From: an uncultured Chroococcidiopsis sp.
GTDB lineage: Bacteria; Cyanobacteriota; Cyanobacteriia; Cyanobacteriales; Chroococcidiopsidaceae
Assembly (NCBI GenBank): GCA_964248365.1
Contig: CAXTYC010000023.1
Location: 11,598-75,597, forward strand
DNA length: 64,000 nt
Direction of reading: 5' to 3'
The first letter of the stretch is position 1. Each line of letters opens with the position of its first letter. Positions 1 to 47,854 of the stretch are shown one piece after another. Made by a program: the position numbers and the translations under genes. Under the pieces are notes generated by a model. It saw only the letters and a program-made list of their open reading frames with translations. It was not told where the DNA came from and ran no database searches.

Positions 1-242
1 CTGGCTTAAAAGATATTGTTGAGCATCAGCAAAACGGCTACCTGGCTAAACCCTATGAACCAGAGGATCTAGCTCAAGGCATTGCCTATGTGCTAGAAAA
101 CGACGAACGCCATCAAAAACTGTGCGATCGCGCGAGGGAGAAAGCTGAAAAAGAATTTACCCTAGAACTACAAGGATGGCGCTACTTGTCTCTGTTTAAC
201 GAAATTATGAATGAAGGCGATCGCCTGCATCACAAGACTTGA
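1..242 (+). CDS. 3' end of a GT4-type glycosyltransferase (start lies upstream of the window)
   Basis: Frame from nt 3 reads GLKDIVEHQQNGYLAKPYEPEDLAQGIAYVL...FTLELQGWRYLSLFNEI, stop TGA at 240-242; typical GT-B C-terminus. Confidence 0.85.
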   Translation, partial: GLKDIVEHQQNGYLAKPYEPEDLAQGIAYVLENDERHQKLCDRAREKAEKEFTLELQGWRYLSLFNEIMNEGDRLHHKT

Positions 243-581: not shown

Positions 582-1847
582 ATGCCAACTCAAGCAGTGA
601 ATTTAATTAGTAAAAATATGCACTTTATGGGCGATCGCAAGCTAATGCTGTTTGACTTATCAATTTATGGGCATCACCCAAGCTACATTCAGCACTTTAT
701 CAATTATTGGAGCAAACAGGAATTACCAGGTAGCTTAGATATTGTTGTATCCCCGAAGTTCATTCAGGAACACTCTGATGTTGTATTAGCTGCTAATTCC
801 AATAAAGAGGGCATTAATTTTATAGCAATTACTCAAGAAGAAGAAGCAAATTTAAAAACGAGAACCTCTGGCATTAATCGGAATATTCGTGCCTTTCAAG
901 AATGGAGATTATTTTGTAAATATGCACAGAGCCTGAAAGCAAATCAATCTTTAATCATGTACTTCGATCCTTACCTGCTACCTTTAGCTGTGGGGATGAA
1001 GTCACCCTGCTCGTTTTCTGGTATTTACTTTAGACCAACCTTTCATTATTCTAGCTTCAGCAATTTCAGGGCATCGTGGAGCAATCCATTACAGCAATGG
1101 CGAGAAAAATTTATTTTAAATCGTGTTTTGCGTCATTCACAGCTTAAAACATTATTCTGTCTCGATCCTTTTGCAGTTAAACATATTAATAACTTTAATA
1201 GGGCAGCAAGCGCAGTACACTTACCCGATCCAGTTTTGTTACAAAATGAAAATGAAGGCAAGCTAGAAAATTTAAAACAGAAGTTTGGAATTAATTCGGA
1301 AAAGAAAGTATTTCTTTTATTCGGAGCATTAAATGGGCGCAAAGGAATTTACCAGCTATTAGAGGCTATTGGGTTGTTACCACCTGCTCTATGTGAACAA
1401 ATGTGTTTGGTATTTGTAGGAGAAGCAAATCCTACAGATCAAGCCTTAATTAAATCTAAAGTAGCAGCTACTTGTCAAGCTCAGCCTGTGCAAATTATTG
1501 AACATTATGAGTTTGTGCCAGAACAAGACATTCAAGCATATTTTCAACTAGCAGATGTTGTTTTAGCCCCATATCAACATCATGTTGGTATGAGTGGAAT
1601 TTTACTCTTAGCCGCTGCTGCTAACAAGCCCGTTTTAAGTTCAAATTATGGCTTGATGGGAGAAATGGTGCAGCGTTACCAGCTAGGTATAACAGTTGAT
1701 TCAACCCTGCCAGAGGAAATTGCTAAGGGATTGCAACGCTGCTTAGACAAATCTCCAGACGAATTGCGCGATCGCACACTAATGCAGTTGCTTGTAGAAA
1801 AAAACTCAGCCGAAGAATTTGCCACTATACTTTTTCAATACGTATGA
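582..1847 (+). CDS. Glycosyltransferase family 4 (GT-B)
   Basis: FGALNGRKGIYQLLEA and ADVVLAPY...GMSGILLLAAAANKPVL motifs. Confidence 0.85.
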   Translation: MPTQAVNLISKNMHFMGDRKLMLFDLSIYGHHPSYIQHFINYWSKQELPGSLDIVVSPKFIQEHSDVVLAANSNKEGINFIAITQEEEANLKTRTSGINRNIRAFQEWRLFCKYAQSLKANQSLIMYFDPYLLPLAVGMKSPCSFSGIYFRPTFHYSSFSNFRASWSNPLQQWREKFILNRVLRHSQLKTLFCLDPFAVKHINNFNRAASAVHLPDPVLLQNENEGKLENLKQKFGINSEKKVFLLFGALNGRKGIYQLLEAIGLLPPALCEQMCLVFVGEANPTDQALIKSKVAATCQAQPVQIIEHYEFVPEQDIQAYFQLADVVLAPYQHHVGMSGILLLAAAANKPVLSSNYGLMGEMVQRYQLGITVDSTLPEEIAKGLQRCLDKSPDELRDRTLMQLLVEKNSAEEFATILFQYV

Positions 1848-1977
1848 AATAAGTACTTCAAAACAATAAAATTACTGAAGATTCTCCTAGCAAAATTAAT
1901 TGATATGTTGATATCTAATAAGTAATATTATCAAAAGTTCCTGATTTGTATTTGAGTAAGTTAAAGGATATTTTCAA

Positions 1978-3264
1978 ATGGCTCAACTTACCGTAAAGAA
2001 GCTTATACCTCTAGGATTTATAAAGCTTATAAAGAGCTTAATTAAACCAATCCATAAGTTTACTGTTAAACTGCTGCATAATTCTCCTATTAGTTCTGAA
2101 ATTATAGGTCCTCCTAAAGGATTTTATATTTCAACCAAAGATTGGATAGCTAGACATAGTTTAGATGAAAGCAAAAGTCAAGCAAGCTATGAAGAAATTT
2201 ATCCAAACCATCAAGTAACTCGGTTAAAACCTAAAACTGTAGATAAAGATATACACTGGCAGTTCCGGCTACAATCGGTCTATGAATTTCCTAACACATT
2301 TGTCGCTGTAATTCCTGGTGGACGTGTTTTCGGAGATAAAGGAGTAGTTATTACTCCTGACGATCAGCTTTTAGCAGATGTTTCTATAGAACTAGGAGCT
2401 TTAAGTCCAGAAAAAGCAAATCATCATTCAATCTTTCGTCAATTAAAATTACCTTCTCTAACTAGTATAGATAAAACGGTAGCTCTACTATCAGTAGGAG
2501 GCGGAAAAGACATATATTTTCACTGGATGTTTGATCTACTACCGCGCATTCATTTACTGCGCTGTAGTGGAATTCCTATAAACTCTATAGATAATTTTAT
2601 TATCAATAAAATTCATCTGCCATTTCAACAAGAAACACTATCTATCTTGGGTATTCCCCAGGAAAAAATAATAGAAAGTCATAATCACTTTCACATAAAA
2701 GCAAAAAAATTAGTAGTACCTGCGTTACCGAGTATACCTGGTCAAGTACCTAAATGGGTTTGTGAATTTCTTAGAAAAGAGTTTTTGTATAACCAGGTGG
2801 GAATCAAAATAGATGGATGGGAACGTGTTTATATAAGTCGTGCTAAGGCAAAGCACCGTAGAGTTATTAATGAAGAAGAGGTAATCAATTTTTTAGATAA
2901 ACTTGAATTTAAAACTCTAATACTAGAGTCAATGACAGTGCCTGAACAAGCATTGTTGTTTTCTTCTGCTAAAGTTATAGTAGCGCCCCACGGAGGTGGT
3001 TTAACTAATGTTGTTTTCTGTCAACCAGGAACAAAAATTATAGAATTTTTCTCTCCAAATTATGTAATTCCAATTTACTGGGCGCTGGCAACTGAGCTAG
3101 GTATTGAATACTATTATCTTTTGGGGGAAGGGCAATCACCAAAACTACCAGAAGACGTTGACTATTACTTGCAGCGTGAAGATTTTTTGGCTGACCTTCA
3201 GAAACATATATCAATAAATATAGACTCTTTAGCAAAGCTGATGAAACTGGCTGGAGTAACTTAA
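1978..3264 (+). CDS. DUF563 / GT61-family glycosyltransferase
   Basis: YFHWMFDLLPR, RVYISRAKAKHRRVINEEEV and VAPHGGGLTNVVFC motifs. Confidence 0.85.
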   Translation: MAQLTVKKLIPLGFIKLIKSLIKPIHKFTVKLLHNSPISSEIIGPPKGFYISTKDWIARHSLDESKSQASYEEIYPNHQVTRLKPKTVDKDIHWQFRLQSVYEFPNTFVAVIPGGRVFGDKGVVITPDDQLLADVSIELGALSPEKANHHSIFRQLKLPSLTSIDKTVALLSVGGGKDIYFHWMFDLLPRIHLLRCSGIPINSIDNFIINKIHLPFQQETLSILGIPQEKIIESHNHFHIKAKKLVVPALPSIPGQVPKWVCEFLRKEFLYNQVGIKIDGWERVYISRAKAKHRRVINEEEVINFLDKLEFKTLILESMTVPEQALLFSSAKVIVAPHGGGLTNVVFCQPGTKIIEFFSPNYVIPIYWALATELGIEYYYLLGEGQSPKLPEDVDYYLQREDFLADLQKHISINIDSLAKLMKLAGVT

Positions 3265-3458
3265 TTAAATTCCTCACAAAGCCTAGAAAGTTTAGTTAAA
3301 TATATTTCCAAAAGATAAGAAATAAAATAACACGCTCTTTTTGAAAAATAATTATCTGTATTGATTTGATGAAATGTCAAATTTTGTAGCTTAAAAACCA
3401 AAAACAGTACGTATAAATTATTATAATTTTACTTCAGGACTATAGTCCTGTTTAAACT

Positions 3459-4637
3459 ATGACTAGCACAGCTTTAGAAGTATCTAAAAAAAAGACTCAC
3501 ACTGATATCCGCATTGCTTGGCTACTGCCATCAGCATTTTTTTACTGGCAACCTGCCATCAGCAAGTTAACGCAGATGTTTCCGCAGACAACTGTGTTTA
3601 CGGGACATTGGCAAGGGTTCGCCCCTGGCTTTGAAGACTCATTCTCGGTAGAAGTTCTAGAAAGAAAGGTTATACAACTTACTCGTACATCGACAGGTTA
3701 TGGCAATAGCTTCACTTACTTACCTTTGAATATTGTTAGCCGATTACTTCGGTTTAAACCTCATATAATTTTTACCAGTTCTTTCGGAGTCTGGACTATC
3801 CTTGCACTGCTGTTAAAGCCATTAGCAAAATGGCAAGTTGTAATTGCTTACGAAGGTAGCTCACCAAGTGTAGACTATCGAGGTTCTGCACCGCGTTTAG
3901 CATTGCGACGGGCAATGGTAAAAGCTGCGGATGCCTTAATTACTAACAGTCGAGGGGGAAAAGCTTATTTAATAGATATCCTCAAGGCTAAAGAGAGTAA
4001 GGTTTTTCATCAACCTTATGAAGTTCCGGCTACAACAGCTTTGATGGGATACACCCAAAAAGATGAGCGGGGCAATATCGACCAATTACAAAAACCAGTT
4101 TTTCTATTTGTAGGTGGTATCGTCCCCAGAAAAGGTCTGCATCTATTGTTAGAAGCTTGCGTTGTTCTTCAGAAACAAGGATATCGCAACTATACATTAC
4201 TAGTCGTCGGTGACGGAGCGCAGCGAAAAGAACTTGAAGCCTTTAGTCAAAAACATCAGCTAGCAGAATGCGTGAAATGGTCAGGCAGAGTAGATTATGG
4301 CAGCCTGGGTACTTATTTTCGCGCCAGCGATGTTTTTGTCCTTCCCACACTAGAAGACACTTGGGGAGTGGTTGTACTCGAAGCAATGGCTTTGGGCAAA
4401 CCTGTTCTGTGTTCTAAATGGGCAGGAGCTTCTGAAATGGTAATTGAAGGGGAAAATGGATACCTTTTTGAGCCGCATCAGCCAGAGGAACTGGCAGAAG
4501 TGATGCGCCGTTTTATCGAGCAGCCAAATCTCAGTATCTCAATGGGCTACAAGTCGCAACAGTTGATGACACAACATACACCAGAGGTAGCAGCCCAGTT
4601 CCTTGCTAACGTTACATCTTTTGTCGTGAGAAATTAA
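3459..4637 (+). CDS. Glycosyltransferase family 4
   Basis: FVGGIVPRKGLHLLLEA; DVFVLPTLEDTWGVVVLEAMALGKPV. Confidence 0.9.
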   Translation: MTSTALEVSKKKTHTDIRIAWLLPSAFFYWQPAISKLTQMFPQTTVFTGHWQGFAPGFEDSFSVEVLERKVIQLTRTSTGYGNSFTYLPLNIVSRLLRFKPHIIFTSSFGVWTILALLLKPLAKWQVVIAYEGSSPSVDYRGSAPRLALRRAMVKAADALITNSRGGKAYLIDILKAKESKVFHQPYEVPATTALMGYTQKDERGNIDQLQKPVFLFVGGIVPRKGLHLLLEACVVLQKQGYRNYTLLVVGDGAQRKELEAFSQKHQLAECVKWSGRVDYGSLGTYFRASDVFVLPTLEDTWGVVVLEAMALGKPVLCSKWAGASEMVIEGENGYLFEPHQPEELAEVMRRFIEQPNLSISMGYKSQQLMTQHTPEVAAQFLANVTSFVVRN

Positions 4638-4642
4638 GCAAG

Positions 4643-5881
4643 ATGAAAAGTATAAAAGTTTTGATCTCAGCTTATGCCTGTAGACCAAACCAAGGCTCTG
4701 AGCCAGGAGTAGGCTGGAATGTAACTAGAGAGTTGGTCAAAAACCATCAAGTATGGGTAATTACTAGAGAAGATAATCGTCCGTCTATAGAAGCTGAGCT
4801 AGCCAAAAATCCAGTTCCTGGGTTGCAAGTTGTCTACTATGACTTGCCCAAATGGGCACGTTGGTGGTATCGAGGACAGCAGTGGGGAGTACAATTTCAC
4901 TACTATCTCTGGCAGATTGGAATTTACTTCTTAGTCCGCAAGCTTCACCGCGAGGTTGGCTTTGATCTAATACATCATGTAACCTACGTAAAATACTGGT
5001 CGCCGAGTTTTCTTTCACTTCTGCCTGTTCCTTTCATCTGGGGACCTGTCGGCGGTGGAGAATCTGCACCAAAAGCTTTCTGGCGAGATTTTAGCTGGCG
5101 GGGAAGAGCTTACGAAACCGTGCGAGATGTGGCTCGCTGGATTGGTGAAAAAGATCCATTCGTGCGTATGACTGTCGAACACAGTACCTTAACTGGGTCA
5201 ACAACGGAAGATACAGCAAAGCGATTGCACAAAATTGGTGCTACAAATGTACAAATAATTTCCGAAACAGCTTTAGCCAGCGAAGAAATAGCACGATTAG
5301 CACACCATACACTGCCCCAAGCTTCGCCAGTCAAATTTATTAGCATGGGTAGGCTGCTGCACTGGAAAGGCTTTCACTTAGGGATACGTGCCTTCGCCGA
5401 GGCAGATTTACCTGAAGATGCTGAGTATTGGCTGCTTGGGGAGGGACCTGAAAGGCAACGGCTTCAGGCTTTGGCTGAGAAATTGGGTATTGCCCACCGT
5501 GTCAAATTCTGGAACAGACTGCCAAGGGAGGAAACCTTGCAGAAGCTGAGTCAATGTGTAGCGCTGGTACACCCCAGCTTGCATGACTCTGGTGGCTGGG
5601 TGTGCTTGGAAGCAATGGCTACAGGTCGCCCTGTGCTTTGCTTGGATCTGGGTGGTCCTGCTGTCCAGGTAACATCAGAAACTGGCTTTAAGGTGGCAGC
5701 ACATACACCAGAACAAGCAGTGCGCGACTTAGCCGCGTCAATGACTCGATTAGCTCAAGATTCCCAGCTAAGAGTAAAGATGGGGCAAGCAGGTCAAAAG
5801 CGGGTTAGTGATGCATACAGCTGGGAAGCTAAGGGTCAGTCCCTGACTCGACTTTACGAAGAAATTCTTGCTCTGCAATAG
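4643..5881 (+). CDS. Glycosyltransferase family 4
   Basis: SAYACRPNQGSEPGVGWN N-terminus; HPSLHDSGGWVCLEAMATGRPV; starts 5 nt after the previous stop. Confidence 0.9.
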   Translation: MKSIKVLISAYACRPNQGSEPGVGWNVTRELVKNHQVWVITREDNRPSIEAELAKNPVPGLQVVYYDLPKWARWWYRGQQWGVQFHYYLWQIGIYFLVRKLHREVGFDLIHHVTYVKYWSPSFLSLLPVPFIWGPVGGGESAPKAFWRDFSWRGRAYETVRDVARWIGEKDPFVRMTVEHSTLTGSTTEDTAKRLHKIGATNVQIISETALASEEIARLAHHTLPQASPVKFISMGRLLHWKGFHLGIRAFAEADLPEDAEYWLLGEGPERQRLQALAEKLGIAHRVKFWNRLPREETLQKLSQCVALVHPSLHDSGGWVCLEAMATGRPVLCLDLGGPAVQVTSETGFKVAAHTPEQAVRDLAASMTRLAQDSQLRVKMGQAGQKRVSDAYSWEAKGQSLTRLYEEILALQ

Positions 5882-5967
5882 ATACTTAGACTAAACCTAC
5901 CCCAGTTCTGTTTCGGTTAATTAAATTCAGTGTTCTCACCTCACCTAAAAGAAGTATCTCTTTCCCT

Positions 5968-6906
5968 ATGACTTCACCTTTAGTCAGTATTATCATCACC
6001 AACTACAACTACGGATGCTACTTAGGCAAGGCTATAGATAGCGCGTTAAACCAAACTTATCCTCATACAGAGGTCATAGTAGTAGATGATGGCTCCACCG
6101 ATAACTCTAAGGAAATCATCGCTAGCTACGGAAAGCAGGTTATCTCAGTGTTCAAGCAGAATGGTGGGCAAGCTTCAGCCTTCAATCAGGGTTTTGCAGT
6201 AAGCAAAGGAGATATTATTTGCTTTCTTGACTCTGATGATATATTCACACCCATAAAAATGGAAGAAGTTGTGAAAACGTTTAAAGAATGCCAAGATATT
6301 GGTTGGTGTTTTCATCATCTTTGTTTAGTAAATATAAGTGAGGCTTTTGCTAAATATAACGATGGATTAAAAAATGAAAAAGTAAATATATTATCTAGAG
6401 AAAACATTGATTTTAGAGTGAAAATTAAAAAAGCAAAGTTACCTAACTTTGTTCCTGCAACTTCTGGGCTTTGCTTCTCACGATCGCTCTTAAATCAGAT
6501 TCTTCCAATGCCTGAAGCTGAAGGTGTATCAATTAGCGACCTTTACATGAAATATATAGCATTAGCTTTAAGTAAAGGCTGTGTTATAAATGGTAATTTA
6601 GCAATTCAAGGTATACACAGTAATAATGCATATACTTGTAAATCCACAATAGAAAAACAAAAAATATATGCAAAAATAGACATCCTAACAGCCTACTGGA
6701 TACGAGTTAAATTCCCAGAACTTGCTAAGACTACTAATAAGTTATTAGCAAGAGGAATTGGAAGTTATTTTCAAAGTGGAAGTATTGAATTACAATATAA
6801 AAAAACTATCAATAATTATTTATTTACTGTCTCTTTAGCTGAGAGGACAAATATAATTATAAAAGCTTTTTACTACTATTTAAAGTTTTGGGTACGCTTA
6901 GCCTAG
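5968..6906 (+). CDS. Glycosyltransferase family 2 (GT-A)
   Basis: VSIIITNYNY, VVDDGSTD, FLDSDD (DxD) motifs. Confidence 0.9.
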   Translation: MTSPLVSIIITNYNYGCYLGKAIDSALNQTYPHTEVIVVDDGSTDNSKEIIASYGKQVISVFKQNGGQASAFNQGFAVSKGDIICFLDSDDIFTPIKMEEVVKTFKECQDIGWCFHHLCLVNISEAFAKYNDGLKNEKVNILSRENIDFRVKIKKAKLPNFVPATSGLCFSRSLLNQILPMPEAEGVSISDLYMKYIALALSKGCVINGNLAIQGIHSNNAYTCKSTIEKQKIYAKIDILTAYWIRVKFPELAKTTNKLLARGIGSYFQSGSIELQYKKTINNYLFTVSLAERTNIIIKAFYYYLKFWVRLA

Positions 6907-6990
6907 CGGTTAAAGTTGAACACAGCTAGTTCAAGATTTAGCAAAAGTACTTTCCCACTATTGCTTTTAATTTAGGTTAATTTTTAACCC

Positions 6991-8145
6991 ATGCCAAATT
7001 GTTTTACATTTAAGCCTAATGTAGTCTTCTTTAGTGGTCTCCTCCTGCCTCCATCTGAGACATTCATCCGCGCTCAAGGGGAAGGGTTGCAGCAATTCAC
7101 TCCCTATTATGTAGGTTCGCGTATAGTAAAGGGTTTATCCTTGCCTTCTGAGCGTACCTTGGTCGTCAATCGAGGTGGATTTTTAGGTGCTGCACAGGAA
7201 GGTTTATTCAAGCTATTAGGATCTGCCCCAAGGTTGTACAAGCAAGTACAGCAGTTAAACCCTGTTTTAATACACGCGCACTTTGGGCTAAATGGATCTC
7301 TAGCCCTCCCTTTGGCACGAATCCTGAAGCTCCCTATGGTGGTGACGTTTCACGGCTCTGATGCTACAAAAAAGGATGAGTATGTACCCTGGTCTTCCAT
7401 CAGTCATCAGATATACTTTCGCCGCCGAGAAGCTCTCAAGCGCGAGGCTAGGCTGTTTATTGCCGTATCGGAGTTTATCAAGACAAAGTTGGTTGAGCAG
7501 GGCTTCCCACCAGACAAAATTGTAGTACATCACATCGGCGTAGACACAGAAGTTTTCCAACCCGATCGGGCTGTGCAGCGTGAGCCAGTTGTGCTGTTTG
7601 TTGGGCGGCTAGCTGAGAAGAAAGGCTGCCAATACTTGATTCAGGCTATGGCTCAGGTACAGGCAGAAATACCTGATGTGGAGCTAGTGATCATTGGCGA
7701 TGGACCACTCAGGCTGCAATTAGAAGATTTAGCAGCCTCATCACTAAAACGCTACCAATTTTTGGGACTACAACCACCGCAGGTAGTCAAGAGTTGGATG
7801 AATCGATCGCTAATGCTTGCTGCTCCAAGTGTCACGGCTTCAACGGGAGATTCTGAGGGTTTGCCTACTGTTGTAGTTGAAGCGCAAGCGATGGGTTTAC
7901 CTGTTGTAGGTTCTGTTCATGCTGGTATCCCCCAAGCGGTAGTGCATGGAGAAACAGGTTTCTTGGCGGCTGAGCGGGATTGGACAAGTTTAGCAGAACA
8001 TATTTTGCGACTACTTAAAGACCCGATACTTTGGCAAAGTTTTAGCTGCAATGGGCAGCAGCGAGTAAGGAATTTATTCGACTTGCATAAGCAAAATCAA
8101 GCTTTAGAAGGTATTTATGAAGCTGTTTTGCGCCAAGAAGTTTGA
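6991..8145 (+). CDS. Glycosyltransferase family 4 (WcaL/AmsK-like)
   Basis: PSETFI, HAHFG, VTFHGSD, GDSEGLPTVVVEAQAMGLPVV. Confidence 0.9.
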   Translation: MPNCFTFKPNVVFFSGLLLPPSETFIRAQGEGLQQFTPYYVGSRIVKGLSLPSERTLVVNRGGFLGAAQEGLFKLLGSAPRLYKQVQQLNPVLIHAHFGLNGSLALPLARILKLPMVVTFHGSDATKKDEYVPWSSISHQIYFRRREALKREARLFIAVSEFIKTKLVEQGFPPDKIVVHHIGVDTEVFQPDRAVQREPVVLFVGRLAEKKGCQYLIQAMAQVQAEIPDVELVIIGDGPLRLQLEDLAASSLKRYQFLGLQPPQVVKSWMNRSLMLAAPSVTASTGDSEGLPTVVVEAQAMGLPVVGSVHAGIPQAVVHGETGFLAAERDWTSLAEHILRLLKDPILWQSFSCNGQQRVRNLFDLHKQNQALEGIYEAVLRQEV

Positions 8146-8207
8146 AGGCAAAAGTAACGTTACGTCTTTTTTTTGATTTTTAGATGAATATTTCTAGGAG
8201 GTAAGAG

Positions 8208-11200
8208 GTGCAGAAATCTCAAGAGCAACAGCAAGCGATCGCAACCACTTTCATACAGGAACCACTTGCAGCATCTAGCGTTACAGATCAGCAGATGGTG
8301 CAAGCGGCTATACTTGCCGATCCTTCAATTGATGAGTGTGTTGTACTAAATCGAGCAAAGGAACCCACTAGAGAGCTTGTTGCTTACGTAGTCTCTAGGG
8401 GAAAGTTCTCTCCAGAGCAGATCCAATCTCACTTGCAAGCTAGTCTGCCTTCAGATCTTTTAGCGATCGCCTATGTACCTGTGTCTAAACTGCCCCTTAC
8501 TCCTACAGGACAAGTGGATGAGCAAGCTTTGATTGCTCTAGAGGTGGTCGATTCTGACTTGGTGCAAAGATGGGAAACTCAACTGCAATCCCTGCCAGAA
8601 ATTGAGCAAGCAGCCCTCGTAGTTCAAGAGTATATAGAAACTTCTCCCCCGCTACATCTGTCAGATTTGCTGCCCGATTGGAAGTCCACCCCAAGCACTA
8701 GTACTGCAACCACAATTACAACTGCAAGCTCTTTTGATGCTATTGAAGAAGCAACCGAATCCAAGGCACTAGCCATCAGCTACGGCGGATCTCTGCCTGA
8801 AGAACCTAATGCTCCCACCACTCTACCAGAAGTTCTGCAAAGAGCAGCTCGTCAAATTCAGGGAGATAGCATTGTCTACCTCCAGCCAGACGGCACAGAA
8901 ATCTTTCAATCTTATGGGGATTTAGTGGAGGAGGCAGAGCGAATTCTAGCTGGACTGAGAAAGCTAGGGTTGAAACCTCAAGACAAAGTAATTTTACAAC
9001 TGGAACTCAACCAAGACATTATCCCAGCGTTCTGGGGTTGTATTTTAGGAGGCTTTATTCCCGTAATTATGGGAGTAGCACCGACTTACAGTTCATCCAA
9101 TAATGCAGTAGACAAGCTGTGTAATGTTTGGCAGTTATTAGATCAGCCTTTAATATTAACCACCCAAGCACTCCAAAAATCAGTACAATCTCTAACTCAA
9201 TGGCTACCCGCTGAAGATTTTCAAGTAAGCTCAATTGAAGCATTAAGAAAAAACACTGCTGATAAATCATATCACCCTTGTAAACCAAATGATCCGGCAT
9301 TTTTCAACCTGACTTCTGGCAGTACCGGAATGCCAAAATGTATCAGTCTGACTCACTGGAATCTAATATCTCGCGCTATAGGAACTAATATCCTCTCTCA
9401 CCACGACTGTGAAGATGTAATTCTAAATTGGCTGCCTTTCGATCATATTGGTAGTATTTCAGACTGGCATATTCGCTGTGTTTACTTAGGCTGTAAACTT
9501 ATTTATACAAATAAAGAATATATTCTTGGTCACCCATTAAACTGGTTAGATTTAATTGATAAATACCGCATTACTCATAGCTGGGCATCTAACTTTGCCT
9601 ATGCCTTGATTTATGATGCCCTCAAACAAGAACCTGAACACAAATGGGATCTATCCTGCGTCAAATCCTTACTCACCGCTGGAGAAGCTGTTTCTTCCAC
9701 TGCTGTGAAGGATTTTATTGAAAGTCTTGCTGTTCATGGTTTCAAAAAAACAGCCATTCGTCCAGCTTTTGGCATGGCAGAGATGGGATCTGGTATTACT
9801 TACTATCAGCCAACAGAAGAAAATCCTCTACTTTTTCATACTGTTGACAAATCTTCTTTAAAAGGCTCCATTAAAAGAGTAAGTGCAGAGCATCCAAATT
9901 GCACAACTTTTACAGATTTAGGTCCAGTGATTCCTGGGGTATCGATTCGGATTGTAGACAAGGAAAACTCACTGTTATCTGAGGATACAATTGGTTGTCT
10001 ACAAGTAAAGGGCGATGCTGTATTTGCTGGCTACTACAAAAACCCAGAAGTCAATAAAGAAGTATTTGTAGAGGATGGCTGGTTTAATACCGGAGATTTA
10101 GGATTTATTTCCGATGGTCATCTGGTTGTTACAGGTAGGGCTAAAGAAACCATTATTATTAATGGAGCCAATTATTACAACCATGAAATTGAAGCGGTAG
10201 TAGAAGAAATTGAAAGAGTTGATGTTTCTTATACTGCTGCCTGTGCTGTGCGGGATGCTAAGGGTACTACCGATAAATTAGCAATCTTTTTCAGTGCTTG
10301 CGGTGTTGATGAAGAGCATCTAATTGAATTGCTAAAGCAAATCCGGCAAACAGTTGTTGGCAAAGTGGGGGTAAATCCTGATTACTTAATTCCTGTTGAA
10401 AAGGAGGTTATTCCCAAAACAGCAATTGGTAAAATTCAGCGATCGCAACTAAGCAAACTTTTTGAAGCGGGTGAATTTGACCATATTCTCAAACGCTTAG
10501 ATATTCTGCTCAAAAACGCTAATACACTGCCAGACTGGTTCTATCGCAAAAGCTGGCGACCGAAAGAAGTTGTATCTTTAAATATTCAACCTCTGACGGG
10601 TCAAACTCTGGTGTTCCTTGACTCATTAGGAATGGGTGAGTTGATCGGTGCAGAACTAAGCCGTCAGTACCAGCCATGTGTCAGCGTCGAGGTGGGGTCA
10701 GATTTTGTTCAGTTGAGTAGCGATCGCTATCAAATCAATCCTCAAAACCCTGACCACTATCGGCAACTACTTGAGTCTGTTTCAGAATGCACTTTACAAA
10801 TTGGTCAAATTCTGCATTTATGGAATTATGACAATTATGCTGGCGAAATTTCAAGTCCAGAGGAACTAGAGCAGGCGCAGGAAAGAGGAATCTACAGTTT
10901 GCTGTTCTTGGTGCAGGCGCTGGCTAAAGTTCAGAGTTCTGAGCATCCAGTTCGCTTGTTAGTTGCAGCTAGTCACACCCAGCCTACCTCGGCATCTGAC
11001 AAAGTTGCGGCTCAAAAAGCGCCGATGTTGGGTTTGATTAAAGCAGTGTCTCAGGAATTATCTTGGCTGGACTGTCGCCATGTGGATTTATCTCTAGACA
11101 CGGTAGAAATCAATGCTGAGCAAATACTGCGAGAGTTACGAGTTTTGCAGCGATCGCCAGAAGTAGCTTACCGCCAAAATCAGCGTTTGGTTCCCTGCTT

Positions 11201-13454
11201 GGAGAAAGTTGACTGGAGTCAGGAGCCAGAGCAACAACTGCCTTTTAAGCAAGGTGGAATGTATCTGCTGAGCGGTGGTTTAGGTGGTATTGGTGTTGAG
11301 ATTGCTAAGTATCTGTTGCAAAATTACAATGCTCGGTTACTGTTGGTAGGTAGAACTGCGTTACCAGAAAGAAACACATGGGATGCGGCTTTAAAGGAAA
11401 AAAATGCTGTGCGAGAGCGGATCGAGGCTTACCTATCTCTAGAACAACTGGGAGGAGAGATTGCATATCAGGCTGTTGATATTTGCGATCGCATTCAATT
11501 GCAACAGGTAGTTGATCGAGCTAAGTCGCTTTGGCAATGTGAACTAGATGGAGTAATTCATCTAGCAGGAACCGCACCAGAACGCTTGTTAGTTGACGAA
11601 ACTCGTGACAGTTTGGCAACAACCCTGCGTCCCAAGGTTTTGGGTACTTGGGCGTTGCATCAATTGATTAAAGACCAGCCAAACAGCGTTTTTATCAGCT
11701 TCTGTTCGTTGGCGAGTTTCTTTGGCGGCGCGATGATTGGTGCTTATGCTGCTGCTAATAGTTTTCTAGACTGCTTTACCCACTATCAGCGATATCATCG
11801 TTCATTGCAGAGCTATTGCTTTGCTTGGGGGATGTGGGAAGCGATCGGTATGAGCCGGAATTCTCAAGCAAAGGATTTACTTCGTGCCAAAGGTTATCAA
11901 GCTGTGACGCTAAAGCAGGGGATGCATTCACTGCTGATAGGTTTGCACCACGATCAAGGGCAACTACTGGTAGGTTTGGATGGCAGTAACCGCAATATCC
12001 GACGGTATATAGAACCGCAGTTGTGTCGCCGTGTTCAGACACTATCTGCTTATTTCACTGCTAACACCGATTTATTGCTCTCAGGTAGGTTAGAAGCATT
12101 GTTAGTGAGCGATCGCTTCGGCACACCAAGTAAATGCACCTTTCGGCAGATCCAGCAAATGCCGCTAACAGATACAGGTGAAATCGACCGCACACAGCTA
12201 GCCGCAATTGGTCGTGCGGGAGCTGCCGATCAGGTGAAGCCGACAACAGAACTAGAATGCCAACTAGCTAGCATCTGGCAGCAGGTATTGGGGGTTTCCC
12301 AAGTAGGCATCCATGACAACTTCTTTGAGTTAGGTGGGAGTTCACTACAAGCCGCGCGTTTATTTGCTGAAATTGAAAAAACCTTTGGCAAAAATCTGCC
12401 CTTGGCTACCCTCTTTGAAGCTCCAACAGTCGCGCAGCTTGTCACTCTTATCAGCACACAAGAAGAGTCAGTATTGTGGTCTTCGCTGGTTCCGATTCAA
12501 ACTGGGGGTTCTAAGCCACCTTTGTTTTGTATTCATGGAGCTGGTGGCAACATTCTCATGTACCGCCAACTAATACCTTACTTAGATTCAGAGCAACCAA
12601 TTTATGGAATACAGCCAAAGGGACTAGATGGACATGAGACACCCCTTAACCGGATTTCAGAAATGGCGAGTGTTTATGTCAATGAAATGCGTGACTTGCA
12701 ACCTGAAGGACCCTACTACTTGGCTGGTTTATCTGCTGGTGGCTTAATTGCCTTTGAGATGGCACAAGTCCTTCAAGCTCAGGGTCAACAAGTGGCAATG
12801 CTTGCCTTAATCGATCCTCACGCTCCTGGTTATCCCAGATTATTGCCTGTAGTACCTCGATTATTATCATTGCTACCTTATGCAGCTTACCATTTAGCCA
12901 AAAGAAGCCCATCTCGTATAGCTAAGCTGTTCCAATCTAGACTATCGCAAGCTCGTTCACAATCACAGCAAGCAGTCAGTCAAAGCTATGCAACAAGTGA
13001 AAATCTTCAACAGAACGAGGGATTAGAGGTATCGATCAATAGCAATAGAAACTTACCTCGAAAAATTAATTCTTTGCGCGATCGATTGGAATATTTCAGC
13101 CTCTGGCTTTTGAAATTTACTCCCTGGGCATTTCTTGTGCCGAGGTTTTACTTAGAGGAGGCGAATTCTTTACCTAACTCTCTTCAGAAGATTCAAAAAG
13201 CCAATGTTGAGGCAATGCTTTCTTACAATGCCCAAGCCTATCAAGGTCGGGCAATCCTGTTTCGCGCTAGCGAACAACCACCCGGATGTTACCCCGATCC
13301 CCAGTTGGGCTGGAGTAATTTAGTGGCTGGAGGACTTGAGGTTTACCAAATCCCTGGCTATCACAGTGAATCTTTGCTGTATGAAGAACGAAGTGTTCGA
13401 GTTCTTGGCAAGCAGTTGAAGACTTGCTTAGATCGAGCGATCACAAATAAGTAG
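8208..13454 (+). CDS. Stand-alone NRPS-like enzyme: (Asub remnant)-A(keto-acid type)-KR-T-TE
   Basis: A: LTSGSTGMPK, NWLPFDHIG, FGMAE, FNTGDLG, GRAKETIII, PKTAIGKIQR. KR: SGGLGGIG (11271) and YAAAN. Carrier: DNFFELGGSSL (Ser codon 12342). TE: GLSAGG (Ser codon 12732) and PGYH. No condensation domain. GTG start preceded by GGAGG. Confidence 0.9.
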   Translation: MQKSQEQQQAIATTFIQEPLAASSVTDQQMVQAAILADPSIDECVVLNRAKEPTRELVAYVVSRGKFSPEQIQSHLQASLPSDLLAIAYVPVSKLPLTPTGQVDEQALIALEVVDSDLVQRWETQLQSLPEIEQAALVVQEYIETSPPLHLSDLLPDWKSTPSTSTATTITTASSFDAIEEATESKALAISYGGSLPEEPNAPTTLPEVLQRAARQIQGDSIVYLQPDGTEIFQSYGDLVEEAERILAGLRKLGLKPQDKVILQLELNQDIIPAFWGCILGGFIPVIMGVAPTYSSSNNAVDKLCNVWQLLDQPLILTTQALQKSVQSLTQWLPAEDFQVSSIEALRKNTADKSYHPCKPNDPAFFNLTSGSTGMPKCISLTHWNLISRAIGTNILSHHDCEDVILNWLPFDHIGSISDWHIRCVYLGCKLIYTNKEYILGHPLNWLDLIDKYRITHSWASNFAYALIYDALKQEPEHKWDLSCVKSLLTAGEAVSSTAVKDFIESLAVHGFKKTAIRPAFGMAEMGSGITYYQPTEENPLLFHTVDKSSLKGSIKRVSAEHPNCTTFTDLGPVIPGVSIRIVDKENSLLSEDTIGCLQVKGDAVFAGYYKNPEVNKEVFVEDGWFNTGDLGFISDGHLVVTGRAKETIIINGANYYNHEIEAVVEEIERVDVSYTAACAVRDAKGTTDKLAIFFSACGVDEEHLIELLKQIRQTVVGKVGVNPDYLIPVEKEVIPKTAIGKIQRSQLSKLFEAGEFDHILKRLDILLKNANTLPDWFYRKSWRPKEVVSLNIQPLTGQTLVFLDSLGMGELIGAELSRQYQPCVSVEVGSDFVQLSSDRYQINPQNPDHYRQLLESVSECTLQIGQILHLWNYDNYAGEISSPEELEQAQERGIYSLLFLVQALAKVQSSEHPVRLLVAASHTQPTSASDKVAAQKAPMLGLIKAVSQELSWLDCRHVDLSLDTVEINAEQILRELRVLQRSPEVAYRQNQRLVPCLEKVDWSQEPEQQLPFKQGGMYLLSGGLGGIGVEIAKYLLQNYNARLLLVGRTALPERNTWDAALKEKNAVRERIEAYLSLEQLGGEIAYQAVDICDRIQLQQVVDRAKSLWQCELDGVIHLAGTAPERLLVDETRDSLATTLRPKVLGTWALHQLIKDQPNSVFISFCSLASFFGGAMIGAYAAANSFLDCFTHYQRYHRSLQSYCFAWGMWEAIGMSRNSQAKDLLRAKGYQAVTLKQGMHSLLIGLHHDQGQLLVGLDGSNRNIRRYIEPQLCRRVQTLSAYFTANTDLLLSGRLEALLVSDRFGTPSKCTFRQIQQMPLTDTGEIDRTQLAAIGRAGAADQVKPTTELECQLASIWQQVLGVSQVGIHDNFFELGGSSLQAARLFAEIEKTFGKNLPLATLFEAPTVAQLVTLISTQEESVLWSSLVPIQTGGSKPPLFCIHGAGGNILMYRQLIPYLDSEQPIYGIQPKGLDGHETPLNRISEMASVYVNEMRDLQPEGPYYLAGLSAGGLIAFEMAQVLQAQGQQVAMLALIDPHAPGYPRLLPVVPRLLSLLPYAAYHLAKRSPSRIAKLFQSRLSQARSQSQQAVSQSYATSENLQQNEGLEVSINSNRNLPRKINSLRDRLEYFSLWLLKFTPWAFLVPRFYLEEANSLPNSLQKIQKANVEAMLSYNAQAYQGRAILFRASEQPPGCYPDPQLGWSNLVAGGLEVYQIPGYHSESLLYEERSVRVLGKQLKTCLDRAITNK

Positions 13455-13530
13455 CACAGGTATTTAAGGGAAGCAAAGGGGAGTTAGTAAATTCTAATTC
13501 CCCTCGCTCCTCGCTCATGCCTATTTTCAA

Positions 13531-14670
13531 GTGAAGTCTATTTTCGGACTTAATCTAACAATGCAACAAGCAAAGCTTCAACAAATTGACCAAGACTTGA
13601 TTAGGCTGCTAAGGGAAAGAATAGCAGTCTTGGCAGAATCAGGAATTCCTCCTTTAGAGCAGCAACTGTCAGACTGCTCATCCTACCTTGCTCAGACAGG
13701 CGTGCCAGAATCTCTATGGCAAAATATTGTCACAGGTTGTGTTGCTGCACTCAAGAGCGCATCCTTGTCTCACAATCAGATTGAGCCGCGCAACATTACT
13801 GCGATCGGCGGAGGCGGTATGATGGGGCGCTTCTTTACACAGCGGCTGCAAGCAGCTGGACATAATGTTAATGTTCTCGAATACAATGACTGGGATAATG
13901 CAGAGAAATTACTATCCCAGGCAGATTTAGTATTAGTCTGCGTTCCCCTCAAAAGTACATTGGCTGTAATTCAAAAGGCAGCTAAATACCTTCGTCCAAC
14001 CACTGCACTAGTTGATATTGCCAGTATCAAAACTCCCTTCGTGCAAGCTATGCTAGAGCAGCATAAAGGACCTGTATTGGGTTTACATCCCATGTTCGGT
14101 CCAGGGGTCAAATCCTTCTTGTCACAAAAAGTTGTAGTTTGCCCAGGTCGTGAAAATGAGGCGTTCCAATGGTTTCTAGACTTTATTAAAAATGATGGCG
14201 GCAAGCTGATTACCTGTACGCCCCAAGAACACGATCGCATGATGATAGCTATCCAAGCAATCCGGCATTTCTGTACGTTTAGTCTTGGTGTTTTCTTGGC
14301 AGAAGAAGAAATTGATATAGCCCGTAGCCTAGAGTTTGCTAGCCCGATTTATCGCCTTGAAAGTAACATAGTTAGTCGCCTGTTTGCCCAGGATGGGTCT
14401 TTATACATAGATATCATACTAGCTTCCGAGGAACGCACTGGGGCAATCGGTAGGCTGGCGCAGACTTATAACCGTTTGGCGAAATTGGTGGCACAAAAAG
14501 ATCGCTCCGCCCTGATGCGCGAGTTTGTAAATGTCGGCAATGCTTTTAAACAAGAGTCGGATCGCGCTCTTGAAGAAAGTAATTATGTGATCAACGCCAT
14601 CAGTACACTTTTAGCGGCAAGCGAGGTCAAAGCGAATTCAACGCCAGCAACACTTGTCAGCAACACTTAA
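13531..14670 (+). CDS. tyrA: Prephenate dehydrogenase with a degenerate chorismate-mutase-like N-terminus
   Basis: IGGGGMMG Rossmann motif, DIASIK, GLHPMFGP, EHDRMMIAIQAIRHF; translation may start at the Met 10 codons in. Confidence 0.88.
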   Translation: MKSIFGLNLTMQQAKLQQIDQDLIRLLRERIAVLAESGIPPLEQQLSDCSSYLAQTGVPESLWQNIVTGCVAALKSASLSHNQIEPRNITAIGGGGMMGRFFTQRLQAAGHNVNVLEYNDWDNAEKLLSQADLVLVCVPLKSTLAVIQKAAKYLRPTTALVDIASIKTPFVQAMLEQHKGPVLGLHPMFGPGVKSFLSQKVVVCPGRENEAFQWFLDFIKNDGGKLITCTPQEHDRMMIAIQAIRHFCTFSLGVFLAEEEIDIARSLEFASPIYRLESNIVSRLFAQDGSLYIDIILASEERTGAIGRLAQTYNRLAKLVAQKDRSALMREFVNVGNAFKQESDRALEESNYVINAISTLLAASEVKANSTPATLVSNT

Positions 14671-14692
14671 ACTTACTTGAGCTTATCTGGAA

Positions 14693-16156
14693 ATGAACCT
14701 ACGACAAAAGGCTGCTAAAGGTGTAGCTTGGTCTGCGATCGAAAATTGGGGTAATCAGGCAATCTATTTTGTCCTATTTCTTGTGCTTGCCCGCCTGTTA
14801 CCACCAGAAGCCTTCGGGCTGGTTTCCTTGGCTGGTATTTTGATCAGTTTTATGATGGTCTTTGCTGATCAAGGAATTAGTGATGCGCTCATACAACGCC
14901 AAGAACTGGAACCAGAACACTTAGATACTGCTTTCTGGACTAACGTTGGCGTTAGTGCTTTGCTAACTATATTTAGCATTGCTGCTGCCCAACCCGTGTC
15001 TAACTTATTCCATCAGCCGCAGTTGATGCCAATTATATGCTGGTTATCCCTAAGCTTTTTGAGTAGCGGCTTGAGTAGTGTGCAGCAGTCACTTTTGCGT
15101 CGCCAATTTGCCTTCAGAGCTTTAGCAGTGCGATCGCTCTTAGCGTTATCTGTCGGAGGTATCGTCGGTGTAAGTATGGCTTGTATGGGCTGGGGTGTCT
15201 GGAGTCTAGTTGGTCAGCAGTTGGTCGGTCGGTTAGTTACAGTTCTAGCTCTATGGTGGGTTAGTGACTGGCGACCTGGTTTTAGGATTTCTGCCAAACA
15301 TTTTAAGGAGTTGTTCTCCTTCGGGATAAAAATGCTCGCAGGTAGTATACTCGCTTTTTTTAGTATCCGCTCTGATGATTTTTTAATCGGATACTTCCTC
15401 GGTCCTGTGGCACTTGGCTACTACACAGTTGCCTACAGGCTGCTGGTAGCTATGACACAGATGATAAGTGCTACTACACGCCAAGTCGCACTACCGATAT
15501 TTTCCAGGCTACAGCAACAGACCGAGCAGCTAAGGCAAGCATTTCTCAGTGCCACACAGTTCTTGAGTTTGTTTGTTTTTCCAGCCGCTTTAGGTCTAGT
15601 GGTACTAGCTCCCGAAGTGGTGCGGACTTTGTTCGGTGAGCAATGGACACCAAGCGTTCCGGTGATGCAGATTCTTGCTCTGAGTGTCATGACACAGATA
15701 GTCGGTTCTCTGGGTGGAATTATCTTGGTAGCAGTCGGCAAGCCTGATTGGGGTTTAAAAATGATTTTGCTCAACACTGTGGTTAACGTCATCGGTTTTG
15801 CGATCGCAGTTCGATGGGGCATTGTGGCTGTGGCAGCATCATTTGTAATTCGTGATTATCTACTTCAACCTGTTTTGTTTTGCCTCGTCTATAAGCTTAC
15901 AGGCATCAAGGTTTTCACTTATCTTCGCCAATTTGCCGTCCCACTTGTTGGTTCGCTAATCATGATATTTTTTATCTTGGGAGCAAAATTCTTCCTGGGT
16001 AACTTGCTAAACTCGCAGGCATTATTAGCAACTTGTGTGACGCTTGGAGCGTCGATATACACAGCAACAATACTGTTAATTGCACCAAAAATATTCTGGC
16101 AAGTAGTTAATTTTGCTGGCTTATCATTAGGAATTTCTAAGTTGAAAAAAACTTAA
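14693..16156 (+). CDS. wzx: Wzx (PST-type) polysaccharide flippase
   Basis: LARLLPPEAFGLV, ALIQRQEL, DDFLIGYFLGPVALGYYTVAYRL; many TM segments. Confidence 0.9.
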   Translation: MNLRQKAAKGVAWSAIENWGNQAIYFVLFLVLARLLPPEAFGLVSLAGILISFMMVFADQGISDALIQRQELEPEHLDTAFWTNVGVSALLTIFSIAAAQPVSNLFHQPQLMPIICWLSLSFLSSGLSSVQQSLLRRQFAFRALAVRSLLALSVGGIVGVSMACMGWGVWSLVGQQLVGRLVTVLALWWVSDWRPGFRISAKHFKELFSFGIKMLAGSILAFFSIRSDDFLIGYFLGPVALGYYTVAYRLLVAMTQMISATTRQVALPIFSRLQQQTEQLRQAFLSATQFLSLFVFPAALGLVVLAPEVVRTLFGEQWTPSVPVMQILALSVMTQIVGSLGGIILVAVGKPDWGLKMILLNTVVNVIGFAIAVRWGIVAVAASFVIRDYLLQPVLFCLVYKLTGIKVFTYLRQFAVPLVGSLIMIFFILGAKFFLGNLLNSQALLATCVTLGASIYTATILLIAPKIFWQVVNFAGLSLGISKLKKT

Positions 16157-22877: not shown

Positions 22878-23345
22878 ATGTTGAAATTAATAGGCTTGAG
22901 TGCAACTTTATTTACTAACACTTTTGTGTTTTTGTCTGGCGCTCAATTGGAGGCGATCGCACGAGAGCCTGATTACCCTTGCTACATGATTGCTCCCTCC
23001 GGCCAAACTGTAGATTTATCTAACTCCCTGTGTAGTTTCGGACATAATATTGTTGATACTAGTGCTAATATTGACGACTTATTCTTTGCTGATTATAAGC
23101 AAGCTCTAATCAAAAAGTATCCAAACTTAAATAATGTTTTGCTGGAGCAACAACCTGAAGCGTTTGGGTATGCTCATGCTGTTTGTAATGGTCTGAAGTC
23201 TGGGCTTTCTCCTAATGTAATTCAAAGTTTACAAAACGAGCAAATTGTTAATACCATTTCTGGAAGAAACACGATTGTTGACTTAGAATTGATTAATTTT
23301 TTAGCTCCTAAATACTATTGCCCACAATTCAAGCAAGGTAGGTAA
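22878..23345 (+). CDS. Secreted hypothetical protein (CYM..G..VDL..LC motif plus DUF732-like C-terminus)
   Basis: Signal-like N-terminus; PCYMIAPSGQTVDLSNSLC; YAHAVCNGLKSG...APKYYCP. Confidence 0.6.
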   Translation: MLKLIGLSATLFTNTFVFLSGAQLEAIAREPDYPCYMIAPSGQTVDLSNSLCSFGHNIVDTSANIDDLFFADYKQALIKKYPNLNNVLLEQQPEAFGYAHAVCNGLKSGLSPNVIQSLQNEQIVNTISGRNTIVDLELINFLAPKYYCPQFKQGR

Positions 23346-43168: not shown

Positions 43169-43170
43169 TC

Positions 43171-43233: not shown

Positions 43234-43277
43234 CCACGTTCTAGGGGTGAGGTTGATCCACACTTTTAAGGCTATAT

Positions 43278-47846: not shown

Positions 47847-47854
47847 CTTAATAA

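Follow-up and report, generated by a model that had tools for sequence, protein, structure and literature searches.

Nonribosomal peptide synthetase (NRPS) modules that activate a keto acid are known from several biosynthetic systems. In the aeruginosin pathway, the loading module AerA, which consists of adenylation (A), ketoreductase (KR) and thiolation (T, carrier) domains, activates phenylpyruvate or 4-hydroxyphenylpyruvate (HPP) and reduces it to phenyllactate (Plac) or 4-hydroxyphenyllactate (Hpla) (PMC10143770). The adenylating domains of this class have been named KALs, short for 2-keto acid AMP ligases, in a 2026 paper, in which degenerate A-domain remnants (Ax) were found to complete a pseudo-Asub fold; the survey in that paper covered only modules that contain a condensation (C) domain (PMC13643306). 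In this work, we describe a stand-alone enzyme of the order KAL-KR-T-thioesterase (TE), encoded in a 64,000-nucleotide stretch of DNA from an uncultured Chroococcidiopsis sp. (contig CAXTYC010000023.1; this whole stretch is called the window below). Its gene lies among glycosyltransferase (GT) genes and is followed by genes for a prephenate dehydrogenase (PDH; tyrA) and a Wzx-type flippase. We consider, tentatively and with slightly less than even confidence, that the locus encodes a module by which an extracellular polysaccharide (EPS) made in a Wzx-dependent way is decorated with an aromatic hydroxy acid.

The window enzyme shares with AerA the KAL-KR-T core (57% identity overall and about 70% in the A domain) and the predicted carrier-bound product. 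However, AerA hands its product to the condensation domain of AerB, where a peptide is started, and is encoded beside NRPS and Choi genes, whereas the window enzyme has a TE, no C domain, and GT and flippase genes as neighbours. With the StsA, CesA and Vlm modules, represented by the StsA structure 6ULW, it shares Ile and Gly-Met markers and an N-terminal remnant that would contribute to the pseudo-Asub. Those modules act on aliphatic keto acids in multimodular lines, in which the TE oligomerises or cyclises depsipeptides, whereas the window enzyme stands alone. Single-module enzymes that lack a C domain and end in a TE are also known: the fungal and bacterial A-T-TE synthetases of the atromentin, terrequinone and ralfuranone types take HPP or phenylpyruvate and have no KR. 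In these synthetases the TE dimerises two keto acids in a Claisen/Dieckmann fashion, whereas the intact KR of the window enzyme would remove the keto group.

Two further systems are comparable in function. In the DltABCD system (D-alanyl teichoic acids) and the AlmEFG system (glycyl lipid A), an acid is loaded on a carrier protein and ends up ester-linked on an envelope glycopolymer. This likeness is a functional analogy and not membership: Dlt and Alm handle amino acids and use a separate membrane acyltransferase (DltB/DltD and AlmG, respectively), whereas in the window the fused TE is the sole candidate transferase, the predicted acid is an aromatic hydroxy acid made by the KR, and transfer would precede flipping. 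The scytonemin cluster includes a tyrosinase-like gene and a glycosyltransferase gene. According to two papers, this cluster in Nostoc punctiforme has a dedicated tyrA for p-hydroxyphenylpyruvate (PMC2726228, PMC7997468). It resembles our locus in having its own tyrA and, as predicted for our locus, a UV-related product located in the sheath of terrestrial cyanobacteria. However, the window is without scyA-F, and HPP would be reduced on the T domain, whereas it is condensed with indole-pyruvate in the scytonemin route.

Pfam places the domains of the 1748-aa window protein in the order AMP-binding (residues 220-610), KR structural subdomain (819-966), KR (1017-1211), PP-binding (1352-1415) and Thioesterase (1437 onwards). 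An earlier note on this DNA, made from the sequence alone, had proposed an A-KR-T-TE layout with no condensation domain. The core order and the absence of a Condensation domain (in this protein, and in the other scanned window open reading frames (ORFs) of at least 100-120 aa) both hold; the full layout is Ax remnant-KAL-KR-(pseudo-Asub)-T-TE. The remnant, residues 31-101, is Asub-like and has Gln in place of the A10 Lys. The published Ax remnants, which complete the pseudo-Asub, would explain this N-terminal fragment, and the alignment to 6ULW spans both of the split pseudo-Asub regions, i.e. the N-terminal piece and the KR-T linker.

The best solved relative is 6ULW, the A-KR-pseudoAsub-T structure of StsA, which aligns over residues 118-1417 with 864 bits. 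The adenylation part alone gives 513 bits to StsA and 484 to McyG. Fatty-acid activation, which DIP2-like Pfam and NCBIfam FAAL matches had hinted at, was ruled out: the StsA and McyG scores are about three times higher, the keto-acid markers are present, and all of the NCBIfam FAAL models stay far under their cutoffs against this domain. Because FAAL structures score only 125-183 bits, we regard the DIP2/FAAL-like matches as family-level noise. In the segment LNWLPFDHIGSI (residues 406-417), Ile414 aligns with StsA Ile306, the equivalent of Asp235, and with McyG Val227; the replacement of the amine-binding Asp by Ile in the A4 region, with a KR behind it, had been read correctly. Gly522-Met523 (in RPAFGMAE) aligns with StsA Gly414-Met415, where Met stands in place of the Pro of amino-acid A domains, and the Gly-Met motif is found in 120/120 homologues. 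Thus the likeness to keto-acid modules of the StsA/AerA kind drawn in the earlier note is borne out, and sequence comparison strongly supports the assignment of the adenylation domain as a keto-acid ligase of this class. The KR (137.8 bits in Pfam) has the NADPH motif GGLGGIG at 1023 and the catalytic Tyr1180, and according to motif reading and alignment columns the catalytic residues of the KR, T and TE domains are all intact.

For the substrate pocket, the ten Stachelhaus-equivalent positions were mapped via the StsA and McyG alignments and read in the 120 homologues. The window code, IGSWLAASGK, recurs exactly in 75 of these; it is present in every enzyme found adjoining tyrA and also in a large group of KAL-KR-T proteins of about 1426 aa from Nostoc. 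One protein with the same code, P0062 of Nostoc sp. ATCC 53789, is followed by a C-A-T-E protein, a 198-aa protein, a cupin, an SDR and a C-A-T-C-T synthetase; by this synteny it heads an aerA-B-D-E-F-G-like cluster and is an AerA orthologue. A second possible calibrator, P0116, was dropped since its contig is too short and unannotated. The StsA code (ketoisocaproate) is unlike that of the window at 4 positions, and the stand-alone relatives without tyrA have the codes PGIWLTSSGK (Calothrix), PGVWLTSSSK (Microcoleus) and VGIWLVAAAK (Plectonema). A literature search for the code strings gave no match.

Fused variants among the homologues (P0045, P0048, P0102 and P0036) include KAL-KR-T-TE joined to an aromatic amino-acid lyase, KAL-KR-T-sulfotransferase-TE, KAL-KR-T-sulfotransferase-C, and a PRMT5-like methyltransferase joined to KAL-KR-T. 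The order ACP-ST-TE is known from CurM and olefin synthases. By their domain content, the fusions appear to point to aromatic hydroxy-acid chemistry in the family. The keto-acid class, the aromatic specificity and the catalytic competence of the enzyme together lead to 4-hydroxyphenyllactyl-S-T (Hpla-S-T) as the predicted product on the carrier. This product, already suggested in the earlier note, is well supported by the KAL class, the code identical to that of a Nostoc AerA orthologue, the intact KR and T residues, and the prephenate-type TyrA.

The PDH passes the NCBIfam model NF008400 (bifunctional T-protein) with 312.5 bits against a cutoff of 273, and its nearest structure is the dehydrogenase domain of the Haemophilus influenzae T-protein (2PV7, 208 bits). 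In an alignment of Escherichia coli TyrA, the window PDH and four cluster-linked homologues, there is no variation in the catalytic His (HPMFG) or in the Arg that binds prephenate (RLFAQD). The chorismate-mutase part, in turn, is degenerate in all five cluster-linked proteins: an 11-residue deletion takes the Lys37 segment, Arg11 is replaced by Gln, and CM_2 matches the window PDH at E=0.11 only. Since the mutase residues are lost, the protein is a prephenate dehydrogenase derived from a T-protein, and the proposed TyrA function stands for the dehydrogenase; the enzyme is not bifunctional.

The description of this TyrA as dedicated is appropriate at the window locus but not for its clade, which a reverse search with TyrA shows beyond the cassette. 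Members of the clade occur widely among terrestrial cyanobacteria with sheaths; in Nostoc commune, for example, the gene lies near those for DAHP synthase, an HPPD-like dioxygenase, HpaB and a UbiA prenyltransferase, and an HPPD-like gene adjoins the carrier-protein enzyme in two related loci, L086 and L038. To judge from these neighbours, the common denominator of the clade would be the supply of HPP to secondary pathways. In some lineages tyrA is dispensable: in L099 (9625-9960, and likewise in L100, 6278-6613) only the C-terminal third, residues 258-369, is left, with 69% identity. This remnant between intact KAL-KR-T-TE and Wzx genes is a case of gene decay in one lineage, and it indicates that the tyrA linkage is ancestral.

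To compare neighbourhoods, we used the 12 loci that have an IGSWLAASGK-type KAL-KR-T-TE gene with usable flanks (the window, L001, L003, L005, L006, L086, L089 and L095-L099) and six control loci, of which four have other pocket codes (L029, L032, L087 and L088) and two are of the AerA type (L091 and L094). Polysaccharide genes, either GTs or others, occur in all of the 12 loci and in one control locus (L087). A PST-family Wzx gene lies within 10 kb in 11/12 loci, and in 10/12 it is directly behind the KAL gene or behind tyrA. Intact tyrA is present in seven loci, with a remnant in one more, and a tyrosinase homologue in four. A-domain identities among the 12 loci, which belong to different lineages, range from 53 to 86%. 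Linkage of such enzymes to EPS genes, on which the earlier note had staked its proposal, is thus found in genome searches.

A blind test was also made. For a Wzx homologue of 76% identity on a contig outside the KAL list, we predicted a KAL-KR-T-TE gene, and this was found upstream; the contig also had GT4 genes, a pectate-lyase-fold gene and a gene for a 444-aa membrane protein. Contigs of equal length in the three homologue lists suggest further co-residence of KAL, PDH and Wzx genes. The flippases of L003, L005 and L006 are 48-51% identical to the window Wzx, whereas generic Nostoc flippases reach 55-58% and the other cassette flippases 63-76%. Since the former are less alike than generic flippases, the KAL-Wzx adjacency must have been kept across flippase lineages. 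Recurrence in 12 independent loci puts the arrangement far beyond chance, and a role of the enzyme in polysaccharide synthesis appears well supported by the conserved Wzx/GT synteny and the blind prediction. On genome contigs, a profile of the whole TE alignment gave mostly generic NRPS/PKS thioesterases, with L006 and L007 the only family members among the matches listed, and a metagenome scan with the family-specific TE lid gave only 4 loci, each of them informative.

One locus shows a different enzyme in the same place. The region 1485-19886 of L038 parallels 1-24733 of L086, both containing Dnd (DNA phosphorothioation) genes, an HPPD-like dioxygenase, an X-T-TE enzyme, a MOP flippase, a GT4, sulfotransferases and TyrA. 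At the adenylating position, L086 has KAL-KR, whereas L038 has a canonical A domain in a (C)-A-T-TE enzyme. This parallel indicates that the recurring design is a single-module carrier-protein enzyme that ends in a TE, beside a flippase.

The features of the window that concern the cluster are collected in Table 1. They belong to a co-oriented run of 19 ORFs on the + strand (582 to 27651), of which 16, up to 24722, make up the cluster, and the cluster extends past the left end of the window. Strand, ORF map and intergenic gaps of 62, 76 and 22 nt in the series GT4, NRPS-like gene, PDH and Wzx are as given in the earlier note, apart from the tyrA start, which is more likely the ATG at 13561 and would widen the gap before tyrA to 106 nt. 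The GT genes said to flank this block are indeed there, six and a partial GT4 upstream and two (GT4 and WecG) downstream. The inventory of the four-gene block was thus sound, but the exported tyrosinase and its secreted 155-aa partner in the same run had been overlooked. After the WecG-family gene come the housekeeping genes ispG and ctpA. In a promoter/terminator scan, sites were no more numerous than in shuffles, and so the scan gives no operon evidence in either direction. The order of the five GT genes in 582..6906 is kept in L089 and L095, with orthologues of 78-91% identity, and the GT4 gene that follows them also immediately precedes the KAL gene in L001 (67%), L089, L095 and L099.

Table 1. 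Positions in the window of the cluster genes and of the domains of the KAL-KR-T-TE enzyme
Feature	Position	Strand	Basis
Further GT4-like glycosyltransferase, 3' end only	1..241	+	typical GT4 C-terminal motif read in sequence; runs off window
GT1-type glycosyltransferase	582-1847	+	Pfam
GT61 glycosyltransferase	1978-3264	+	Pfam
GT4 glycosyltransferase	3459-4637	+	Pfam
GT4 glycosyltransferase	4643-5881	+	Pfam
GT2 glycosyltransferase	5968-6906	+	Pfam
GT4 directly 5' of the NRPS-like gene	6991-8145	+	Pfam Glycos_transf_1, 123 bits
Stand-alone keto-acid NRPS-like enzyme, 1748 aa	8208-13454	+	Pfam; StsA 6ULW alignment; catalytic residues
Ax remnant: degenerate A-domain C-terminal (Asub-like) fragment, residues 31-101	8298..8510	+	AMP-binding_C, 26.9 bits
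KAL domain, residues ~189-768; Ile414, Gly522-Met523, Lys742	8772..10511	+	similarity to StsA/McyG
Ketoreductase, structural and catalytic subdomains, residues 819-1211	10662..11840	+	Pfam Beta-ketacyl_N and KR; motifs
Thiolation (carrier) domain, Ser1378	12261..12452	+	PP-binding, 62 bits; GGSS motif
Type-I thioesterase, triad Ser1509/Asp1536/His1719	12516..13454	+	Pfam; invariant triad columns; AlphaFold; Foldseek
Prephenate dehydrogenase, T-protein type, vestigial chorismate-mutase domain	13531-14670	+	NF008400; 2PV7; E. coli TyrA alignment
Wzx-type (PST/MOP) flippase	14693-16156	+	Polysacc_synt_3, 309 bits
GT4 glycosyltransferase	16304-17467	+	Pfam; orthologues of 72-80% in L001, L089, L095, L096, L098
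Pectate-lyase-fold protein, exported; polysaccharide lyase/epimerase candidate	17492-19414	+	Pect-lyase_RHGA_epim, 105 bits; N-terminal hydrophobic signal
Polytopic membrane protein (441 aa), no family	19456-20781	+	~8-10 hydrophobic segments; orthologues of 74-80% in L089, L096, L099
Exported type-3 copper tyrosinase	21363-22706	+	PF00264, 143.6 bits; signal/anchor peptide; six His ligands
Secreted 155-aa protein	22878-23345	+	signal peptide; 46% orthologue directly after tyrosinase in L097
WecG/TagA/CpsF-family glycosyltransferase; probable cluster end	23853-24722	+	Pfam, 219 bits; TIGR00696

What the earlier note called a Wzx/Wzy operon has a Wzx of the PST family (309 bits; the NCBIfam MOP flippase model gives 252 bits, just below its cutoff of 273), but a recognisable Wzy is lacking in the window. 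The 441-aa polytopic protein, which has no Pfam or NCBIfam match and no similarity to a Wzy_C protein, is a candidate polymerase by position only. Among the relatives, a Wzy_C gene was seen in L086, Wzc-like genes flank L003 and L089, and a pyruvyl transferase gene is present in L089. A separate membrane acyltransferase (MBOAT DltB-like or AlmG-like) was found nowhere in the window; an Acyl_transf_3 gene occurs in L003 only. The pectate-lyase-fold gene is kept with the cassette in L001, L005, L089, L096 and L099, always with the gene for the polytopic membrane protein behind it, and its fold suggests that it may encode a polymer-modifying lyase or epimerase.

The tyrosinase has its six His residues in AHG/WHR/EHL (CuA) and AHA/AHL/LHA (CuB) contexts behind an N-terminal export signal, and homologous genes adjoin the KAL gene in L003, L006 and L097. 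In L003 (Lyngbya confervoides, 1867-8984) and L006 (a marine metagenome-assembled genome, ~3013), the tyrosinase domain is inside a giant FG-GAP/SWM-repeat protein of 2372 aa encoded directly 5' of the KAL gene. In L097 (2806-4730), the tyrosinase (61%) and the 155-aa protein (46%) form a pair directly upstream of the KAL gene. The 155-aa protein has a weak DUF732 match and, given this pairing, may be a tyrosinase helper.

The question is then where the carrier-bound acid goes. As the window offers no condensation partner, we infer that off-loading must fall to the TE. The constant flippase neighbour and the position of the gene inside a GT array suggest that the acceptor is the lipid-linked repeat unit on the cytoplasmic face, before flipping. 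We propose the following sequence of steps. The T-protein-type dehydrogenase would raise the supply of HPP; the KAL would adenylate HPP and load it on the T domain, where the KR would reduce it to give Hpla-S-T. The acyl group would move to Ser1509 of the TE and then to the repeat unit, which the surrounding GTs would assemble on undecaprenyl diphosphate at the inner face of the membrane and in which a hydroxyl (or amino) group would accept it. The adjacent Wzx would flip the decorated unit, with polymerisation and export to follow. Once the polymer is outside the cell, its pendant phenols would be turned into catechols and quinones by the exported tyrosinase together with the 155-aa protein, resulting in cross-linking, browning and UV absorption of the sheath. 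HPP supply and Hpla-S-T formation are supported by the comparisons above, and TE transfer, flipping and tyrosinase oxidation would follow from the gene neighbourhood.

A precedent for the transfer step is the TE of Pks13, which off-loads an acyl chain onto trehalose (PMC9210659). Like the proposed transferase, it is a type-I TE that releases its product onto a sugar, but identity is only about 19-20%, and acceptor and acyl group differ. In a Foldseek search with the AlphaFold model of the window TE (pLDDT 77.7), Pks13-TE was among the top matches, but hydrolytic and cyclising TEs were at least as close. The core of the model is a normal hydrolase. Its lid is unusually long (~125 aa), with two hydrophobic, aromatic-rich segments around a disordered polar linker; such a lid would be compatible with contact at the membrane surface but proves nothing.

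The main rival is that the TE simply hydrolyses Hpla-S-T. Free D/L-4-hydroxyphenyllactate (sulfated in the relatives that carry a sulfotransferase) would be released and converted by the tyrosinase into a melanin-like sheath pigment that is not covalently bound, or would serve as an antimicrobial or signal, and clustering with EPS genes would reflect co-regulation only. We consider this unlikely overall, though it draws on several observations: hydrolysis is the default chemistry of TEs, and hydrolytic TEs are among the fold neighbours; in relatives, a sulfotransferase built in between T and TE would tailor the carrier-bound hydroxy acid itself; and, alongside the tyrosinase in 4/12 loci, HPPD-like neighbours could give pyomelanin-type pigments. 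However, hydrolysis leaves unexplained both the position in the middle of a GT array and the fact that the most constant neighbour is Wzx (11/12, in different lineages). Moreover, no gene for exporting a free acid is present in these loci, in contrast to a Calothrix relative outside EPS clusters, which has an MFS transporter.

The remaining rivals are lesser ones. In the first, Hpla is not a decoration but an aglycone or primer, on which the GTs build an oligosaccharide (a phenolic glycoside, by analogy to the phenolic glycolipids of mycobacteria), or else it sits as a cap at the polymer's reducing end. Many GT genes surround the KAL gene, and L005 has starting parts of mycobacterial phenolic glycolipids in its chorismate lyase (Rv2949c-like), AMP ligase and carrier protein. 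We nevertheless find it improbable, since genes for a lipid-forming PKS or acyl chain are absent, the surroundings are a typical heteropolysaccharide set (Wzc and pyruvyl transferase in L089, Wzy_C in L086), and, to our knowledge, PST-family flippases serve polyprenyl-linked glycans only. As an observation in its own right, the region 845-9477 of L005 contains, beside KAL-KR-T-TE, a PPTase, the chorismate lyase and AMP ligase just mentioned, a DAHP synthase, the free carrier protein and a C-T-TE protein. These extra genes look like a 4-hydroxybenzoate arm, which could esterify the Hpla hydroxyl.

Alternatively, the KAL may take pyruvate or another aliphatic keto acid and give lactyl or hydroxy-isocaproyl esters, with tyrA as a passenger. 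StsA, a ketoisocaproate enzyme, is the best structural match, the pocket residues are small in all three enzymes compared, and tyrA is missing in 5/12 loci. We hold this to be quite improbable, because the code is that of the AerA orthologue and is 4 positions off that of StsA, because the linked genes (tyrA, tyrosinase, HPPD-like enzyme, aromatic lyase) all suggest aromatic chemistry, and because the tyrA remnant marks an ancestral linkage. Finally, that an orphan natural-product gene landed by chance in a polysaccharide island, as the mosaic nature of EPS islands and the uneven GC content along the cluster might suggest, is hardly credible given the same neighbourhood in 12 loci of different lineages with 53-86% A-domain identity and the confirmed blind prediction, a synteny that contradicts chance insertion.

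Several points weigh against polysaccharide acylation as we propose it. Neither the sequence nor the fold of the TE tells transfer from hydrolysis, as all type-I TEs match about equally in Foldseek. The AerA identity of the calibrating P0062 is based on synteny, and since AerA enzymes themselves are not uniform in taking phenylpyruvate or HPP, the code does not tell which of the two is used. In 5/12 loci tyrA is absent or decayed, and only 4/12 have a tyrosinase. Because C-domain partners are present in L001 and L005, a small depside or depsipeptide may be made first in relatives. The scanned window ORFs include nothing recognisable as Wzy, as a priming phosphoglycosyl transferase or as Wza/Wzc. 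Our literature search gave no paper in which Hpla is reported from cyanobacterial EPS; it likewise found no NRPS-like gene reported in a cyanobacterial Wzx/Wzy cluster and no relevant paper on an aromatic-acylated cyanobacterial EPS, of which the earlier note had also known no described case.

Matches (31-mers) to 8208-16156 were found in metagenomes from air, aerosol, dust, rock, urban and surface samples of at least 13 studies; no RNA run is among them. Elsewhere in the window, 41101-44642 encodes in a row a DHQ-synthase-like protein (under the aroB cutoff), an O-methyltransferase and a 454-aa protein of the PRK06849 family. By sequence, this is the layout of a mysA/B/C-like cluster for mycosporine-like amino acid sunscreens. 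Together with the metagenome habitats, it fits a sheath-forming cyanobacterium exposed to UV and desiccation. Two other regions were noted: 47151-48904 contains an Eco47II-type restriction endonuclease gene and a convergent C5 cytosine DNA methylase gene, i.e. a type II restriction-modification pair, and the product of 61524-62702 belongs to the bacterial archaeo-eukaryotic release factor (baeRF) families.

Phenolic acids are ester-linked to wall polysaccharides and coupled by an extracellular oxidase in the feruloylated arabinoxylans and pectins of plants. With low confidence, we extend our proposal to a counterpart of such walls in subaerial cyanobacteria: their sheath polysaccharide would be esterified with Hpla via the carrier and TE before Wzx flipping, a secreted tyrosinase would cross-link and darken the polymer, and the cassette would be a candidate genetic basis of EPS-bound pigments. 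The analogy is functional only, as the BAHD acyltransferases and the peroxidases or laccases of plants are unrelated and the cyanobacterial product is hypothetical. Cyanobacterial EPS-bound pigments beyond scytonemin, including gloeocapsin and a newly reported third class, are chemically and genetically unidentified (PMC13213007).

Carrier-protein decoration of the envelope (Dlt, Alm), keto-acid modules and the tyrA of scytonemin clusters are already known; what is new, as far as our literature search shows, is the conserved cassette and, as a prediction, its product. The new combination consists of a keto-acid module without a C domain and with its own TE, beside Wzx in GT arrays, often with an HPP supply and an exported tyrosinase. 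Since sequenced carrier strains exist, one of which is Lyngbya confervoides BDU141951 (GCA_000817775), the hypothesis can be tested directly. If transfer by the TE is true, the decoration of Wzx-dependent polysaccharides would become a further use of NRPS-type chemistry, and a natural route to phenol-grafted, enzyme-curable polysaccharides would be suggested. For rock-, dust- and air-borne cyanobacteria themselves, the cassette would then be a first genetic lead to sheaths that are phenolic, absorb UV or are cross-linked by oxidation.

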